A stretch of 64,000 nucleotides of DNA from Gammaproteobacteria bacterium (GTDB taxonomy: Bacteria; Pseudomonadota; Gammaproteobacteria; UBA4575). The translations under genes and the position numbers were made by a program. Within the stretch, counting starts at the first letter, position 1. Every line of letters starts with the position of its first letter. The notes beneath the pieces were generated by a model that was given only the letters and a program-made list of their open reading frames with translations, did not search any database and was not told the DNA's origin. This document shows positions 3,619 through 53,743 of the stretch, piece by piece. The stretch is from assembly GCA_965247265.1 (NCBI GenBank), contig OZ252002.1, forward strand, positions 483,280-547,279. The letters are read 5' to 3'.

Positions 3619-4797
3619 TTATAATGCTGGTTGTAAAGCGTAGCAGCGCAAACTCTGTGCATATTCTTGTAGAACTTTAATCCCTGTCGCTTCAGCTTCT
3701 TTACACCATTTAATAATTGCCTGTATTAAACGCTCATGGTTTGCATAGGATTCATTCCAAAGTTCTTGTAGCCGAGTACGAAATTCATAGACAATTTTCA
3801 GCGTTTCACTATTTTGCAACAGCTCTTGCAAATATTTTCTATGCAACGGCTTCAAGCGGCTGTCGTCACGCACTAATGCAGTACGCATTTGTCGCACAAG
3901 CTTTTGATAACGTGCATCAAAATCTGGAAGCTCGGTTTTAAATGTTGGCAATGTCACCCGTTGTGCGTAATCTGCCATAATATGCAATTTGGTTGAAATA
4001 ATTGCCTTAGCCGTTTCAATATCTACACAGTCTTTGTTTATTAATCTTGTAGGATTTGGCGCACATCTGCGCACTTTAGCTAATCGCAGAAAACTTAAAA
4101 TCTGAATATAGAACCATCCTAAATCAACCTCCCACCATTTGCTGGAAAACTTTGCGGAACTAGGATAGGCATGATGATTATTATGCAATTCTTCACCGCC
4201 AATAATAAAACCAAGGTTTACAATATTGGTAGAACCATCTTTTGTTTCAAAATTACGATACCCCCAATAATGCCCAATGCCATTTATAATTCCCGCCGCA
4301 GTAAGTGGAATCCAAATCATTTGCACAACCCAAATTGCAATCCCGATAAAGCCAAATAAAATAAAATTTAAAATAAAAAGCATTACAAGACCGTAATAGC
4401 TAAACCGCTTGTAAACATTTCTTTCAATCCAATCATCGGGTGTCCCATGCCCATAATTTTCAAGTGTTTTAGGAATATTTGCTTCGTCTTTATATAAAAG
4501 CGCGCCTTTCCAAAATACTGTGCTAATTCCTTTTGTATGTGGGCTATGTGGATCTTCTTGTGTTTCAGTTTTTGCATGATGCTTCCGATGCACAGCCACC
4601 CATTCTTTTGTCACCATTCCTGTTGTGGCCCATAACCAAAGTCGAAAAAAATGAGAAACTAATGGATGCAAGTCCAATGCACAATGCGCTTGGCAGCGGT
4701 GCAGGTATAAAGTGACAGATGCAATAGTGATATGGGTCAGTATGAACGTGAGAACGATGTATCCCCACCATGGTAGTGCTATCAATCCATCTAACAT
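3619..4797 (-). CDS. Membrane fatty-acid (delta-9-type) desaturase, DesA family
   Basis: His boxes HRCQAH, HRKHH, ELHNNHH; TM helices; helical C-terminal extension. Confidence 0.92.
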   Translation of the reverse strand: MLDGLIALPWWGYIVLTFILTHITIASVTLYLHRCQAHCALDLHPLVSHFFRLWLWATTGMVTKEWVAVHRKHHAKTETQEDPHSPHTKGISTVFWKGALLYKDEANIPKTLENYGHGTPDDWIERNVYKRFSYYGLVMLFILNFILFGFIGIAIWVVQMIWIPLTAAGIINGIGHYWGYRNFETKDGSTNIVNLGFIIGGEELHNNHHAYPSSAKFSSKWWEVDLGWFYIQILSFLRLAKVRRCAPNPTRLINKDCVDIETAKAIISTKLHIMADYAQRVTLPTFKTELPDFDARYQKLVRQMRTALVRDDSRLKPLHRKYLQELLQNSETLKIVYEFRTRLQELWNESYANHERLIQAIIKWCKEAEATGIKVLQEYAQSLRCYALQPAL

Positions 4798-21182: not shown

Positions 21183-21371
21183 TTAATCATCTTTTTTAAA
21201 ACTCCCACCCATGCGTGCAAAGGGATATTCTTTTATGAGATTAGAATAGGCCTGTTTAGCCTCTTCTAAATTTGAAAACAACTCACTTATTTTTACCCAT
21301 TGATCATTACGTAAGTTAATAACGTAACAGATCGGAACTTGTGAATTTATTTGAGTAATATCAACACTCAT
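21183..21371 (-). CDS. Hypothetical 62-aa protein
   Basis: Clean ORF in intergenic space, co-oriented with Nu1-like ORF; F..LEEA..A...L...YP.A faintly resembles half a SPOR-like repeat. Confidence 0.5.
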   Translation of the reverse strand: MSVDITQINSQVPICYVINLRNDQWVKISELFSNLEEAKQAYSNLIKEYPFARMGGSFKKDD

Positions 21372-21418: not shown

Positions 21419-21631
21419 TCACCAATCAGGTTCTAGATTCGTAATTGATAAACGCCAATTAATCGCATCGGCGGTATCGAAGATAAGCTCTCGTTCTTCT
21501 GGATTTCCCACCAGACCTTTTAATCGCTTACGCAGATACGGTAGGCCACGTCGAATCCAATGATCAATGGTGGGCTGATCGACGCCAAAGGTATGGGCCA
21601 AATCAGATTTACTTACTTGTACGCCAGGCAT
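21419..21631 (-). CDS. Stand-alone winged-HTH protein homologous to the N-terminal DNA-binding domain of phage lambda Nu1
   Basis: By-eye match to Nu1 pattern V.K..LA..FG....TI..W...G.P.LR...KG...E...D.A..I.W; lacks the Nu1 coiled coil and C-terminus. Confidence 0.78.
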   Translation of the reverse strand: MPGVQVSKSDLAHTFGVDQPTIDHWIRRGLPYLRKRLKGLVGNPEERELIFDTADAINWRLSITNLEPDW

Positions 21632-21900
21632 TTATAAGTTTGTGATATTAGTTAAGTTAATAAATTGTATGGGCATGTTTATTAGGCTGTTTATGTATTA
21701 GATAAAGTACAAAATTGGGCCGATGGAAGGCCAAACAAATTTCTGTTGTAGATGCACAATTAGTAAGCTCTCTTTAACGTTCTACACAACGACTGAATAT
21801 GAGCAAAGATACTTTGTGAGAAATTTGAAACAAGCCGGAACTGGGTAAAACGTGCATACAGAGCGACGTAACCACCAAATGAGGAAGAGACTTAATTGAA

Positions 21901-22710
21901 ATGAATCAAGACGCTGTAGTGACAAGCATATTAGTTATTGACGGTTCGAGTGCCAGTCGAAAACTGGTGGCCAATAAACTTAAACACATAAGACCTGAAG
22001 TCGAGATTGATACGCGCGCAACTGTCAGCTCCGCCATGCCAAAACTTAAGGCTAAAACCTACGACCTGGTGGCTGTGGGATACACGCTACCTGACGGTAA
22101 TGGTTTAGATTTAGCCAGTAAAATTCGTAATTTAGAAAACAACGAAAAAACCCCCATTGTTATGATTTCCAGCAATGCAGATGTTGATAATTCACAAATT
22201 CGTAATGCACATGGAATCAATGCCTATTTTGACAAATCCTTAGGCATTGATGCGTTAATTGACTATTTAGAAAGTTTTTTGCCCAAACCTAAAGTACCGC
22301 CACCAAGAGTACTATTCATTGATGACAGTCAAACAGTAAATAAAGTGATTAGTCGCGTTTTCACAGATAATGAAATCCCCTTCACAATGGTTAGTTCAGG
22401 TAGCGATGCCATGGTTATGATCAGCACAATGAAAAATCAGCTTGATTCAGAATTTGACATCATGATTACAGACTTGATATTAGATGGTGATGTCTCTGGA
22501 AAAGATATCGTACGCTACATACGACAAGATCTGCGCATTGATAAGAATGCCTTTCCAATAATCTTAGCAACCGGCAGCGACAAAAATAAATTGGACTATG
22601 CGGAACTGCGAACACTGGGCGTGAATGATTTTATCAGCAAACCAGTGATTCAGGATTTGCTCCTAGCACGAATGGAACCTTGGGTTTTAATTAAAAAGAA
22701 CCTTCATTAG
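21901..22710 (+). CDS. Tandem receiver-domain protein (pseudo-REC + REC), no output domain
   Basis: REC1 ILVIDGS...DLVAVGYTLPDGNG (phospho-Asp position is Gly)...FDKS; REC2 LFIDDS...DIMITD...KP; SD-like GAGGA upstream. Confidence 0.88.
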   Translation: MNQDAVVTSILVIDGSSASRKLVANKLKHIRPEVEIDTRATVSSAMPKLKAKTYDLVAVGYTLPDGNGLDLASKIRNLENNEKTPIVMISSNADVDNSQIRNAHGINAYFDKSLGIDALIDYLESFLPKPKVPPPRVLFIDDSQTVNKVISRVFTDNEIPFTMVSSGSDAMVMISTMKNQLDSEFDIMITDLILDGDVSGKDIVRYIRQDLRIDKNAFPIILATGSDKNKLDYAELRTLGVNDFISKPVIQDLLLARMEPWVLIKKNLH

Positions 22711-22791: not shown

Positions 22792-22818
22792 TTAGCACTC
22801 TCTTATCAAGAGTGCTAA
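22792..22818. promoter_or_regulatory. CIRCE operator (HrcA binding site)
   Basis: Perfect TTAGCACTC-N9-GAGTGCTAA ending 31 bp before the rpoH ATG. Confidence 0.95.
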
Positions 22819-22849: not shown

Positions 22850-23716
22850 ATGAGCAAATCAATACCGGGAACACCACTACAGACTTCAATTGCCGTTTCG
22901 ACGGGCAATTTGAAAAGCTATATTGCATCTGCCTATCAGGTACCTGTTTTAAATGCTGATGAAGAACATTCTTTGGCACTACGTCTACATGATTTTAATG
23001 ACCTAGATGCTGCAAGAATTTTAATTGTTCATCACCTGAGATTTGTTATTCAAGTAGCGCGTGGCTACACCGGTTACGGCTTGCCCCTTGCCGATCTTGT
23101 GCAAGAGGGAAATATTGGTCTCATGAAAGCTGTCAAACGTTTTGACCCGCATAAAGGCGTGCGCCTGGTTTCATTTGCCGTACATTGGGTACGCGCGGAA
23201 ATTCATGAGTATGTATTGCGCAACTGGCGTATCGTGAAAGTTGCAACAACAAAAGCTCAACGTAAGTTATTTTTTAATTTACGTAGTGCTAAAAAACGTC
23301 TTGCTTGGTTAAACCAAGATGAAATTAAAAACATTGCTGATGAACTTGGAGTTAAACCCTCCGACGTCATTGAAATGGAAAAACGTATCAGCAATAGTGA
23401 TCTTGAATTTGATCTACCTAGTGACGCTGATGAAAGTAAGTCATTTGCACCTGCTGCTTATCTAAGTCACGCATCAAATGATCCTGAAACTGAGATTGAA
23501 GATAATGACTGGCAAGCGCATCAAAACAAGCAATTAGAAAGTGCATTAAAAACACTAGACGAACGCAGTCGCGATATTATTAGCCGGCGATGGCTGGTAG
23601 AAAAGAAAGTTACCCTGCAAGAATTGGCAACAAAATATCAGATCTCTGCTGAACGTGTGCGCCAATTGGAAAATAATGCAATTAAAAAACTTAAAGCGTC
23701 TGTAGCCGATTCGTAA
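22850..23716 (+). CDS. rpoH: RNA polymerase sigma-32
   Basis: RpoH box [32 protein letters not shown]. Confidence 0.98.
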
Positions 23717-27857: not shown

Positions 27858-27968
27858 TTATTTACTTGCCATTAAAAAATAAAAGCCAATGTATATAGCA
27901 AATGCAATACATCCAAAAACAAACGCTGTGCGTTTAGCTCCTCGTTTTTGTTGTTTCAATATGCTCAT
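27858..27968 (-). CDS. 36-aa single-TM protein between coxA and ctaG
   Basis: Hand translation [36 protein letters not shown]: basic N-terminus plus one TM helix. Confidence 0.6.
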
Positions 27969-29560
27969 GCGTAAACCAATTCCATTCACCTTCAACATTT
28001 GGAGGCGTAGTAAAACTGTGGTATGGCGGAGGTGAGGATAATGTCCACTCTAAACCTTCAGCACCTTCCCACACGCGATCAGTTGCTTTTGCCCCACTAC
28101 GAATAGTTTGAAGCACCAACCATAAGAATATGAGTTGCGAAAAGCCAAATCCAAATGCACCGATTGTTGCCATTTGATTAAAATCAGTGAATTGCAATGC
28201 ATAGTCCGGTATGCGACGCGGCATCCCAGCTAAACCGACAAAATGCATTGGGAAAAAAGTTAAGTTTACAAATATCGCAGATAACCAAAAATGAGTTTTC
28301 CCGAGTGCTTCGTTATACATGTGCCCCGTCCATTTAGGTAGCCAGTAATAGACCGCTGCAAAAATGGCAAATATTGAACCAGGCACAAGTACATAGTGGA
28401 AGTGAGCAACAACAAAATAACTATCATGATATTGGAAATCAGCAGGCGTAATTGCAAGCATTAATCCGGAAAACCCACCAATTGTGAATAGCATTATGAA
28501 GGCAATTGAAAAAAGCATGGGTGTTTCAAATGTCATTGCTCCTTTCCACATTGTGGAAACCCAGTTGAAAATTTTCACGCCTGTTGGCACTGCTATTAAC
28601 ATGGTTGAAAACATGAAAAATAATTCGCCTGCTAAAGGCATGCCTACAGTAAACATGTGATGCGCCCACACTATGAATGATAAGAACGCAATTGAAGCCG
28701 TTGCATATACCATAGACGAATAGCCAAATAATGGTTTACGGGCAAATGTTGGAATGATGCTGGATATCACACCAAAGGATGGCAATATTAAAATATAAAC
28801 TTCGGGGTGCCCAAAAAACCAAAATATGTGTTGAAACAACACAGGATCGCCGCCACCGGCTGCATTAAAAAATGCTTGTTCCAAAAAATTTATCTGTCAA
28901 CAGCATAGTTACACCGCCTGCTAAAACAGGCATCACCGCTATTAGTAAATAGGCAGTGATTAACCACGTCCAAACAAACAATGGCATTTTCATTAACGTC
29001 ATCCCTGGGGCACGCATGTTTAAAATTGTCGCGATGACATTAATGGCGCCCATGATGGATGACATACCCATAAAATGAATTGAGAAAATCACAAATGGCA
29101 GTGCATTACCTGTTTGCAGCATTAATGGCGGATAAAGCGTCAACCCTCCTGCGGGTCCGCCACCTTCCATAAATAAAGTAGATAACATCATGGTGAATGC
29201 GAATGGCAGTATCCAAAAGCTCCAGTTATTCATGCGCGGCAATACCATATCCGTGCCGCCTATCATCATGGGAATCAACCAGTTGGCAAGGCCCGTAAAA
29301 GCAGGCATCACCACGCCAAAAATCATTACGATTGCGTGCATGGTAGTCATTGAATTGAAGAATTGTGGATCTACAAATTGCAAACCTGGCTCAAATAATT
29401 CACTTCTAATTATGAGTGCCATGAAGCCACCAATGAAAAACATGATTAGAGAAAACCAAAGATACAATGTACCAATATCTTTATGATTGGTGGTGGTTAC
29501 CCAACGCATAATTCCGGATGAATGTTCATCATGATGTTCCATTGTTACGTCCGTAGACAT
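27934..29560 (-). pseudogene. coxA: Cytochrome c oxidase subunit I (aa3, type A1), frameshifted
   Basis: Two ORFs (NHKDIG..., then [28 protein letters not shown]) split by one extra base near 28873; also GWT->GLT. Confidence 0.88.
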
Positions 29561-29595
29561 GTTTTTCTCCAAAATACTTCTAGTGTTTTATTTAA

Positions 29596-30398
29596 CTAGT
29601 TTGCCACGGCAGGTTTTTCATTTTCACTTGATGCAAATTTGTTAATTGCATTTTGATCAATTAACCATTGTTCAAATTCTTCAGGTTCAACGGCACGAAC
29701 CACAACTGGCATAAAACCACGATCACGCCCACAAAGTTCAGCACATTGCCCACGATAAACTCCGGGCTTATCGATTCTGGTCCACATTTGATTGATGTAA
29801 CCCGGAATAGCATCTTTTTTAACTGCCAAGTCCGGCACCCACCAAGCATGTAGGACATCATTAGATGTTAATAGAATCCGCACCTTGCGATTTATTGGTA
29901 GAACTAACTCGTTATCTACTTCAAGCAAGTAATTTGAATTTTTTTCTGTTCGATTATAAATTTCTTCACGTGGTGTTTTAAGTGCGCTATAAAAATCCAA
30001 ATTATGATCGATATACTCATAGCGCCACATCCATTGATAGCCAGTAACTTTTACTGTTATGTCGGCTTTGAAGGTATTGCAATTGCGATTAAAATTACAA
30101 ACGGCACAACAGTCCATAAAAATTCTAATAAAACGCTTTCATGAAATTGTGCGGGCTTATGGCCTTTAGATTTCCTATGGTAAATAATGGCGTAAAGCAT
30201 TACTGCAAATACAACTACACCAATCGCACAACAAATATAAAATATAAGCATGTGCAAATTAAATACGCTATTACTAATACCCGTAACACCTTTAGGCATA
30301 TTGTATGGCTGAAGTGCCCATACGGAATTAGAGAAAAGTAGCGCTAAAACGATTACTAAAAACTGATTAACAGCATGTAATTGTTTATTTTGTATCAT
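29596..30398 (-). pseudogene. coxB: Cytochrome c oxidase subunit II, deletion plus frameshift
   Basis: LEFLWTVVPF.IL..IAIPS joins out of frame to ADITVKVTGYQW near 30066; CuA motif reads CAELCGRDRGFM (His->Arg). Confidence 0.88.
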
Positions 30399-52951: not shown

Positions 52952-53743
52952 GGTATTGACAAGTTAACTTTTTACACATCTACGAATTCTAGAAAAAACG
53001 TATTCTATAACGCCGTTGCACATCTCCAAGACGCAAAGGCGTTCTCCCTAAGTTGATGAAAATGCTTAGCTGATACTAAATGACGACCAAGATTGAAAAG
53101 ATTATATACCGCTGCATGTGCACTTAAAAAACGTTGCGCTTGCTGCATCGATTTAAATCGGCGCATTCCTCGCTCTCGAACTCGCGTCGGTTGATGCGAA
53201 AGCTCGGCTCGGTTATTAGCGTATTGAGAAGTATCGTGAATAGATTCTGGGATGAGTTCTCGATGTGCAACGCCATAGCTTCTTAACTTATCCGTGGCTA
53301 TTTTTCTGGGTTCACTCCCATGGTTTCTTATCAGGCGCTTAAAAAAACGCTTGGCTGCAGCGCCATCTCTGCGTGATTGCAGAAACACATCAACTACTTC
53401 GCCATCCTGATTCACCGCGCGCCATAAATAATGTTGCTTACCATGAACTTTGACGAATACTTCATCTATGTAAAATGTATCACCGTAGCCCTGGTGCTTT
53501 CGCTTCAATCGCCTGGCGTATTGAGGACCAAACTTATTACACCACATACGAATGGACTCATAACTGACTTCAATCCCGCGTTCAGCTAATAGATCTTCGA
53601 TGTCCCGATGACTGACGTTGAAGCGATAGTAGAGCCAGACGGCATATTGAATAATTTCAGATGGAAATCGGTGACGTTTATACAAGCTTTTTGATTTATT
53701 CATCCAGTAATTGTCGCCCAGATGCGTTTAACTTGTCAGTACC
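52952..53743 (-). mobile_element. IS6-family insertion sequence (792 bp)
   Basis: Terminal IRs GGTATTGACAAGTTAA / rc GGTACTGACAAGTTAA (15 of 16 match); single transposase; flanks ATTTAGCT vs GACCTGTT give no target duplication. Confidence 0.92.
53005..53703 (-). CDS. IS6-family DDE transposase
   Basis: HRFP..II.YAVWLYYRF.S.RD.E.LLAERG, IDE, YLWRAV, TDK, NNRAE.SH. Confidence 0.96.
   Translation of the reverse strand: MNKSKSLYKRHRFPSEIIQYAVWLYYRFNVSHRDIEDLLAERGIEVSYESIRMWCNKFGPQYARRLKRKHQGYGDTFYIDEVFVKVHGKQHYLWRAVNQDGEVVDVFLQSRRDGAAAKRFFKRLIRNHGSEPRKIATDKLRSYGVAHRELIPESIHDTSQYANNRAELSHQPTRVRERGMRRFKSMQQAQRFLSAHAAVYNLFNLGRHLVSAKHFHQLRENAFASWRCATAL

Follow-up and report, generated by a model that had tools for sequence, protein, structure and literature searches.

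The DNA-binding domains of phage small terminases are known from packaging machines and from the satellites that hijack them. Small terminases of the lambda type bind the R elements of cosB and nucleate the packaging complex. In RppC of the phage-inducible chromosomal islands (PICI), a further domain binds the phage small terminase, and the gene lies in a mobile island. Among proteins with a similar fold, BldC binds direct repeats head-to-tail, and RacA has a long coiled-coil C-terminal part. To our knowledge, a cell-kept, stand-alone chromosomal Nu1-type gene with two fixed paralogues has not been described before, and no description of a cellular solo Nu1-type protein was found in the parts of the full-text literature that were searched. 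Such a gene, here called mini-Nu1, lies between ftsX and rpoH in a stretch of 64,000 nucleotides from a gammaproteobacterium (GenBank assembly GCA_965247265.1, contig OZ252002.1, positions 483,280 to 547,279), and this whole stretch is referred to as the window.

21419..21631, minus strand, stop codon included: mini-Nu1 gene, encoding a 70-amino-acid stand-alone Nu1-type winged-helix protein, ATG start

mini-Nu1 is a genuine chromosomal gene that an uncultured family of gammaproteobacteria inherits vertically, and it is neither a working terminase subunit nor prophage debris. Its product (MPGVQVSKSDLAHTFGVDQPTIDHWIRRGLPYLRKRLKGLVGNPEERELIFDTADAINWRLSITNLEPDW) is read here, with moderate confidence, as a small dimeric DNA-binding transcription or architectural factor of terminase-like ancestry, with a logic resembling that of BldC.

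mini-Nu1 is matched by the Phage_Nu1 profile (PF07471) at an E value of 4.2e-6, residues 5-60 falling on profile positions 2-50 of 164, and by PHROG 57 ('terminase small subunit') at 1.7e-5. phmmer searches of the PDB return small-terminase DNA-binding domains (7lwr_A, 9e-6; 7lxs_A, 6.5e-5; 7lw0_A, 3e-4), and in the same domain class lambda 1j9i_A (5e-4) and 6hn7_B (6e-4), along with a weak match to RppC over the helix-turn-helix (HTH) only (6hlk, E 9.8e-4, residues 6-41). Among 50,697 phage records there are 46 matches at E ≤0.01, every one below 60% identity; all 15 of the matches listed are small terminase genes or the cos end of lambda-like genomes, and the best is phage 21 gp1, with 43% identity over residues 4-59 (tblastn). 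A six-frame search of the whole genome with PF07471 matched the N-terminal part of the profile at mini-Nu1 (23.1 bits) and at one paralogue only. Judged by sequence, the Nu1-type match is far beyond chance, and outside its own family the clear relatives of mini-Nu1 are the N-terminal domains of lambda-type small terminases only.

The gpNu1 and phage 21 gp1 domains (1J9I, 7LW0, 7LWR, 7LXS) have the same winged-helix fold as mini-Nu1, at 32-43% identity, and have in common with it the hydrophobic core as well as two motifs, G-[LM]-P and F/Y-D-[TS]. Whole lambda-type small terminases have about 160-210 amino acids, whereas mini-Nu1 ends after the domain, at residue 70, without the central and C-terminal region for self-assembly and binding of the large subunit gpA (profile positions about 55-164). 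Its wing has 19 residues against about 12 in gpNu1-type domains. Unlike gpNu1, it is not encoded beside a large terminase; it sits in the chromosome, with synteny kept across genera, and a second paralogue is fixed as well. mini-Nu1 is Nu1-type by homology, but since the C-terminal region, the partner gene and a score above the curated cut-off are lacking, it is not to be annotated as a small terminase.

A preliminary description of this DNA, made from the letters alone, had noted most of these features. Its count by eye of about 20 identities to Nu1 agrees with the Foldseek alignment to 1j9i (32% identity over 59 columns, about 19 identities), and the single wing insertion is found again as 7 residues in the PDB alignments. 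The clean stop after the domain also holds, since the six-frame match ends at profile position 50 even with stop codons read through, which indicates that no decayed terminase remainder follows. The GC content of the open reading frame (ORF) had been put at about 46%, above AT-rich flanks; it is 0.460, against 0.302 and 0.349 in the flanks. GC at third codon positions is 0.366 in mini-Nu1, resembling the 0.30-0.37 of ftsX, rpoH and the neighbouring response-regulator gene, so the excess is driven by amino acids and does not mark foreign DNA. As also described, no Shine-Dalgarno sequence is visible 5' of the start, where the sequence reads ...CACAAACTTATAA directly before the ATG. The proposed check with MerR-like and HTH_17 profiles gave less. 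MerR_1 (PF13411; 15.4 bits, cut-off 21.6) and MerR (PF00376; 12.9 bits, cut-off 28.2) cover residues 9-30 only and stay below their cut-offs, and HTH_17 is not among the Pfam matches of mini-Nu1 at E up to 1.

For mini-Nu1, NCBIfam gave sub-threshold HTH rows only, and the matches in the ESM Atlas were one HTH_17 cluster and otherwise small clusters without a name, viral or bacterial. PADLOC-DB 2.0 matched only mad1, over the HTH (E 0.005, 15 bits), and did so for both paralogues. The AlphaFold2 model, built from 25 family sequences, is a winged helix with a mean predicted local distance difference test score (pLDDT) of 78.7 and the topology b-H-H-b-b-H, as the earlier reading of a winged HTH had anticipated. 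Searched with Foldseek against the PDB, its top five matches are terminase DNA-binding domains (TM-score on query 0.61-0.66, 32-41% identity). RacA, RppC, BldC and the excisionase RdfS come next, and MerR- and MarR-type regulators are also in the list.

BldC of Streptomyces (6AMA, 6AMK) resembles mini-Nu1 in architecture, being likewise a chromosomal, stand-alone MerR-like winged helix of about 50-70 amino acids. It comes from a different lineage, has no match at the level of sequence, and aligns by Foldseek at E 0.037-0.072 with a TM-score on query of 0.56-0.57 and 17% identity. RppC (6HLK, 6HN7) has an N-terminal Nu1-like HTH in common with mini-Nu1 (TM-score on query 0.60), but it has 153 amino acids, and mini-Nu1 has neither a further domain nor island genes. 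The N-terminal domain of RacA (5I44) is a MerR-like winged helix with a TM-score on query of 0.59 and 18-19% identity. Xis, RdfS (8DGL, TM-score 0.52) and the HTH_17 proteins are small stand-alone winged helices of the same superfamily; mini-Nu1 differs from them in its fixed synteny and in having no HTH_17 match and no integrase or mobile element in the window, and an excisionase role was rejected, as the window has no integrase. Members of the MerR family differ in having a C-terminal coiled-coil dimerisation and effector region.

mini-Nu1 is predicted, from modelling of two copies, to be a symmetric homodimer. The two-copy prediction scored 0.49, against 0.00 for the best control. The mark for this score was reached by 20 of 30 proteins solved as same-chain pairs and 1 of 23 solved as single chains, counts that are only approximate here because the prediction used an alignment made for this analysis. 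Between runs, 96% or more of the contacts are the same, the partner has a pLDDT of 71 or above, and the interface comprises residues 1-4, 13-18 and 53-64. Dimers of the lambda domain have already been solved, so the pass may reflect that likeness. A symmetric dimer would differ from the head-to-tail binding of BldC. The invariant parts of the protein are the N-terminus, the HTH (DLAHIFGVDQPTID.W), the basic wing base (GLP..RKR) and helix 3 (FDTADAINW).

mini-Nu1 was found in 12 of the 41 related genomes searched, all in the window's own family (11 of 24 same-family relatives, 0 of 16 from other families). Each of the 11 relatives carries it between ftsX and rpoH, in the opposite orientation to these two genes. 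A scan with one genome per species gave 48 loci, 33 of them of orthologue type, and 29 of these 33 have the order ctaA, rpoH (leftward), mini-Nu1 (rightward), then ftsX-ftsE-ftsY and an M16 peptidase gene, which is the equal-length solo arrangement that the preliminary description had suggested looking for. The locus is identical across six genera, and the carrier records are metagenome-assembled genomes (MAGs) of uncultured Gammaproteobacteria, Thiotrichales or Pseudomonadota. When 5.8 billion proteins were searched by a word index, 51 homologues with 60-96% identity came back, nearly all exactly 70 amino acids long; all 51 near-length homologues have 43-77 amino acids, and the search for longer ones found none among 21 candidates, which is weak evidence. 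In the nearer clade (16 loci and the window) mini-Nu1 is 71-83% identical to that of the window. In the farther clade it is 64-66% identical, with FtsX at 31-38% and RpoH at 63-66%.

The ratio of nonsynonymous to synonymous substitution (dN/dS, Nei-Gojobori) was calculated for 25 genes of 70 codons, leaving out four genes of 77 codons. For the 85 pairs, out of 300, whose dS lies between 0.05 and 2, it has a median of 0.048 and a maximum of 0.30. Without wing codons 36-47 the median is 0.034, while those twelve codons alone give 0.51, and the length of the wing tip varies, with 7 extra residues in four loci. Purifying selection is strong on the helices and relaxed at the wing tip. If the ORF were spurious, or the decaying 5' stub of a small terminase gene, this would fit the naming of some members as 'terminase small subunit' and a premature stop in one relative. 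The probability of such debris is next to nil, however, as conserved length, strong purifying selection, the locus shared across genera and the lack of a downstream terminase remnant show that mini-Nu1 is not prophage debris, and no phage genes accompany it.

A second Nu1-type gene in the same genome, encoding 66 amino acids, lies outside the window at G000:C1:2466525-2466725 (= L017:1498-1698, plus strand), and its product is 41% identical to mini-Nu1. It has a GTG start, a Shine-Dalgarno sequence (GGAG) and its own promoter-like site, and terminator-like hairpins were read by eye in several relatives. In all 15 paralogue loci, clpP, tig and CAAX-like and CHAP-like genes lie on one side and tRNA-His/tRNA-Arg on the other, the paralogue being two genes from tig-clpP-clpX-lon. 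It has been seen in the nearer clade only. The record of one of these loci bears the title 'uncultured Mycobacterium sp.' and is probably a mis-binned contig.

Four distant solo homologues, 50-58% identical, occur in other chromosomal settings. Three of them, from high-GC MAGs, have an acyl-CoA ligase (FadD) gene and a FimV-like gene upstream and a large protein of unknown type downstream; the fourth has neighbours of the MMPL and HDOD-GGDEF types. Searched exhaustively with a profile, 1.84 billion representatives yielded 277 proteins at E ≤1e-3 and 13 at ≤1e-10. The best matches are short solos of 66-80 amino acids, followed by proteins of 160-210 amino acids; full-length relatives in this search have 140-235, and 20 of the 26 matches that were scanned hit Phage_Nu1 at E ≤1e-3. 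Counted between the invariant Pro and Phe, a 19-residue wing is present among the short representatives (8 of 23) and in no full-length one (0 of 66; median 12, maximum 16), so the long wing and the solo architecture go together. In a FastTree tree (50 core sites, 96 domains) the last common ancestor of the long-wing solos is that of the whole tree, and representatives of the orthologue and the paralogue group with four longer proteins in a clade of 7 tips (support 0.78). When the 5.8 billion proteins were searched with a profile of diverse long-wing solos, 85 protein clusters (90% identity) came up, all from metagenomes or MAGs, and named, where a name is given, 'hypothetical protein' or 'terminase small subunit'. 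The family is small and seen in uncultured gammaproteobacteria only. The profile matches with several matched stretches, such as P0055 (516 amino acids), are long proteins with 4-10 tandem repeats that mimic the HTH motif (..DLKAAFG....A..HW..QGLP.EGRR), with one LRR_TTSS match; these are probably an unrelated repeat family.

The window was described earlier as having no large terminase, portal, capsid or integrase gene, and this holds: among its 62 ORFs of at least 110 amino acids there is no terminase, portal, capsid or integrase family, and of mobile genes only two transposase matches. Lambda-type terminase genes occur elsewhere in the genome.

G000:C1, about 1835879-1837256, 2209914-2211228 and 2478338-2479709, outside the window: lambda-type terminase gene pairs

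These three large-terminase (GpA-type) genes, at about 1.836, 2.210 and 2.478 Mb, are each preceded by a small-terminase gene of about 175 amino acids. The open frames at the GpA matches have 334, 619 and 408 amino acids, and at least two of the genes may be truncated; the three loci are probably related prophages or remnants. No similarity to mini-Nu1 is seen in the N-termini of the three resident small terminases (BLASTP E 6.8), and a recent derivation from them was rejected for this reason. Among the 12 carrier genomes only that of the window has a GpA-type large terminase, far from the mini-Nu1 locus, so mini-Nu1 is independent of a resident terminase.

A decoy role against phages had been proposed. 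In such a role mini-Nu1 would form heterodimers with a small terminase or compete for cos, and so block or redirect lambda-type packaging as the Rpp proteins of PICI do. The protein is specifically terminase-like, in its match to phage 21 gp1 and in its best PDB and Foldseek matches, it weakly resembles the N-terminus of RppC, its predicted dimer interface is its most conserved surface, and the three terminase loci indicate that lambda-type phages infect the lineage. Yet the position has been fixed long enough to saturate dS, with FtsX down to 31% identity, and the recognition helix is invariant at a dN/dS of about 0.05. At their N-termini the resident small terminases are unrelated in sequence, 11 of the 12 carriers have no GpA-type terminase, and each of two paralogues has its own conserved locus. 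There are no neighbouring defence or mobile genes and no defence island, the PADLOC match is a generic one to the HTH, and the likeness to RppC is limited to the HTH as well. The decoy is therefore quite improbable.

Some 250-450 nucleotides of conserved non-coding DNA go with mini-Nu1, and loci that lack the gene lack this DNA too. Between mini-Nu1 and the divergent gene lie 336-594 nucleotides of partly conserved DNA in all loci but one (145 nucleotides). In the nearer clade the conserved features lie within 270 nucleotides 5' of the gene, as seen in an alignment of 16 sequences (A2).

21664..21693, minus strand: proximal sigma-70-like promoter candidate, TAAACA-18-TACAAT, from a consensus scan
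21695..21730, minus strand: conserved non-coding element CCTTCCATCGGCCCAATTTTGTACTTTATCTAATAC, candidate operator, invariant columns 171-206 of A2
21806..21833, minus strand: distal sigma-70-like promoter candidate directed towards mini-Nu1, TTGTTT-N16-TATCTT
21843..21873, minus strand: invariant-rich 31-nucleotide element GGTTACGTCGCTCTGTATGCACGTTTTACCC, candidate regulator-binding site, invariant columns 26-58 of A2
21901-22710, plus strand: orphan response-regulator gene with two receiver-domain (REC) matches and no output domain
22792-22818, plus strand: perfect CIRCE operator TTAGCACTC-N9-GAGTGCTAA, overlapping the rpoH promoter TTGAAC...TAAAAT

The proximal -10 (CATACAAT, 21669-21664) lies about 32 nucleotides before the ATG and is conserved in A2. 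The distal site is kept as TTGTnn-N16-TATnnT in all 16 sequences, with invariant columns T68 T69 G70 T71 and G89 T90 A91 T92 T95, and the GGTTACGTCGCTCTGTATGCACGTTTTACCC element lies 10-40 nucleotides upstream of its -35. Both sites are putative promoters for mini-Nu1. The element at 21695-21730 has in relatives the sequence TTTATCGGTCTAAATTTrGACTTTrTCTA, in which there are GTCTA/TAGAC half-sites. RNAalifold, applied to the upstream block (both strands), the putative leader and the intergenic region of the farther clade (both strands), gave no convincing conserved structure, with at most 5 pairs showing a double change and energies of -1.4 to -10.6 kcal/mol. Rfam at E up to 10 gave only chance-level rows for small nucleolar RNAs, microRNAs and long non-coding RNAs. 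The elements are therefore read as DNA-level sites, and a small RNA or leader, which was considered for the upstream block, was dropped because no RNA structure is conserved.

The farther clade has a different yet conserved region of 336-499 nucleotides (145 in one locus). It contains an TTTATCGACC element with an inverted copy, GGTCGAC, about 135 nucleotides apart, and a palindrome of 34-36 nucleotides, TATACTGC....GTCA followed by TGA....GCAGTATA (L038:3832-3867, and homologous places in L037-L049). The palindrome and the inverted pair may be either protein sites or RNA stems. A repeat search found clade-specific palindromes but none common to both clades, and a k-mer search across the intergenic regions of both could define no common operator. 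Apart from CIRCE, the 6-mers common to both are TTTATC/GATAAA and a few A/T-rich words such as AAAATT; TTTATC is part of the 21695-21730 element as it reads in relatives. Among five same-family loci without mini-Nu1, four have ftsX directly followed by CIRCE-rpoH and the fifth has no ftsX upstream of rpoH; the ACGTCGCT core and the TTATCGRYC motif were found in none of the five.

rpoH (22850-23716) lies downstream of the CIRCE operator. The CIRCE-rpoH promoter is conserved in all aligned related loci and in the five loci without mini-Nu1, and no other zero-mismatch CIRCE than this operator occurs in the 2.76-Mb genome, which encodes HrcA. Sigma-32 thus appears to be under HrcA control in this lineage. 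A precedent is the CIRCE upstream of rpoH in Geobacter sulfurreducens (PMC545781). The REC-REC gene is present in the window and three relatives only (L021-L023), as an insertion between the mini-Nu1 module and the CIRCE-rpoH promoter, and the module stayed on the mini-Nu1 side.

It is possible, though unlikely, that mini-Nu1 is a dedicated regulator of rpoH, binding the enlarged ftsX-rpoH intergenic region as a second input beside HrcA and CIRCE. It is divergent from rpoH in 25 of the 29 syntenic loci (from the REC-REC gene in the other 4), with the partly conserved DNA described above in between. In the farther clade the TTTATCGACC element lies about 35-45 nucleotides upstream of the rpoH -35, and the paralogue is near tig-clpP-clpX-lon. 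Nevertheless, the core promoter (TTGAAC...CIRCE...TAAAAT) is complete and conserved in genomes that have no mini-Nu1, so an effect on the rpoH side is possible and is not indicated. The conserved block kept to the mini-Nu1 side after the response-regulator insertion, the distal promoter-like site is directed at mini-Nu1, and distant homologues do not adjoin rpoH; with their unrelated neighbours, a specific link to rpoH is not general.

mini-Nu1 as a small DNA-binding factor would work as follows. The protein would pair as a symmetric homodimer via its N-terminus, the HTH turn (F15-G16-V17) and helix 3. The dimer would read DNA with the invariant recognition helix (QPTID.W, helix 2) and the basic wing base (LPY.RKR), and would act as a small transcription or architectural factor, in the manner of BldC. 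Its likeliest first target would be its own upstream region, with two promoter-like sites and two invariant-rich elements before the CIRCE-rpoH promoter, and binding there may have an effect on the divergent side, that of rpoH or of the response regulator. A more elaborate version, rather improbable, is that the cell took over a terminase recognition module together with a cluster of cos-like sites. Dimers would then bend or bridge the 250-450 nucleotides and set the divergent promoters, a phage-derived input to sigma-32 on top of HrcA/CIRCE, and the paralogue would do the same near tig-clpPX-lon.

Several observations weigh against the proposed DNA-binding factor or its terminase ancestry. 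The Phage_Nu1 score of mini-Nu1 (26.9 bits) is under the curated cut-off of 30 bits, although its relative P0054 (30.1 bits) and a few others pass. One of the five AlphaFold2 models is confident and the other four are at about 50. The net charge, counted from the sequence, is slightly acidic. The gene is dispensable, being not found in 13 of 24 same-family genomes, mostly smaller ones, and in one relative (L049, = L012; G023) it has an in-frame TAA at codon 38. The distant solos have neighbours unrelated to those of the rpoH locus. In the window itself the GTCTA/TAGAC element is degenerate, the upstream modules cannot be aligned between the two clades, and the lack of a common operator despite an invariant recognition helix argues against a simple conserved auto-operator. 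In the same relative, L049, the tblastn matches of ftsE and ftsX are split; its defects may be either real decay in a 2.2-Mb genome or sequencing errors.

mini-Nu1 has a short, acidic, conserved tail with a terminal Trp (E-x-[DE]-W-COOH), and W70 is invariant in 19 of 19 orthologue rows of alignment A1. The tail might dock on a cellular partner, the winged helix serving only as a scaffold for a protein-binding adaptor; the model confidence in the tail is low, as is typical of a docking peptide, and the protein is not basic overall. This is very unlikely, since the paralogue and several distant solos have no tail, conservation is highest in the HTH and the basic wing base, and the closest Foldseek relatives (terminase DNA-binding domains, RacA, BldC, RdfS, MerR- and MarR-type proteins) bind DNA.

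The factor with BldC-like logic is retained for mini-Nu1, and the suggestions made earlier fare unevenly beside it. A domesticated phage domain is half borne out, as a solo Nu1-type gene does sit in a core locus, while the direction from phage to host did not emerge from the 50-site tree. As for roles, a regulator or nucleoid factor fits the fixed synteny, the dN/dS, which as a check came out purifying, and the upstream DNA, while the decoy has no positive support. As refuting outcomes, the preliminary description had named a missing Nu1 hit, or prophage small terminases as the only close homologues together with neutral dN/dS or decayed terminase sequence downstream, which would point to simple prophage debris, and none of these was found. 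To speak of an undescribed system was an overstatement for a single-protein family with a facultative small gene, orf62, and a conserved non-coding module.

21183..21371, minus strand: orf62, facultative small gene, on the same strand and 47 nucleotides after the mini-Nu1 stop

orf62 is detected by tblastn in 10 of 33 related loci, with 47-62% identity. Its motif YYVMNM..W.KIS...L.EA..Y..L...PFARLGG is found in 9 of 16 nearer-clade loci, some with ORFs cut short, and loci with a gap of only 59-168 nucleotides to ftsX do not have it. No Pfam, PHROG, NCBIfam or PADLOC family matches it; to the eye, the pattern is reminiscent of one half of a SPOR-like beta-alpha-beta unit. A toxin-antitoxin pair of mini-Nu1 and orf62 was rejected, as orf62 is missing in 7 of the 16 nearer-clade loci and all of the farther clade, and has no toxin family.

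Elsewhere in the window, subunit I of cytochrome oxidase is carried by two overlapping ORFs (27937-29572 and 29599-30398, minus strand; COX1 profile positions 192-435 and 1-194), and subunit II also by two, one with the periplasmic and one with the transmembrane domain. These splits are frameshifts, either real or due to assembly errors. A single ORF at 3622-4797 (minus strand) matches a fatty-acid desaturase and a fragment of an ISL3 transposase, so that the desaturase gene is probably disrupted by, or fused to, an insertion sequence. An IS240/IS6-type transposase lies at 53008-53703 (minus strand).

mini-Nu1 has consequences for annotation, since some MAGs automatically name such proteins 'terminase small subunit', and this label can give rise to false calls of prophages. 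Should mini-Nu1 be a regulator, it would be a new member of the short list of winged-helix factors made up of the DNA-binding domain only, such as BldC, and a clear case of a terminase-type recognition domain at work outside packaging.

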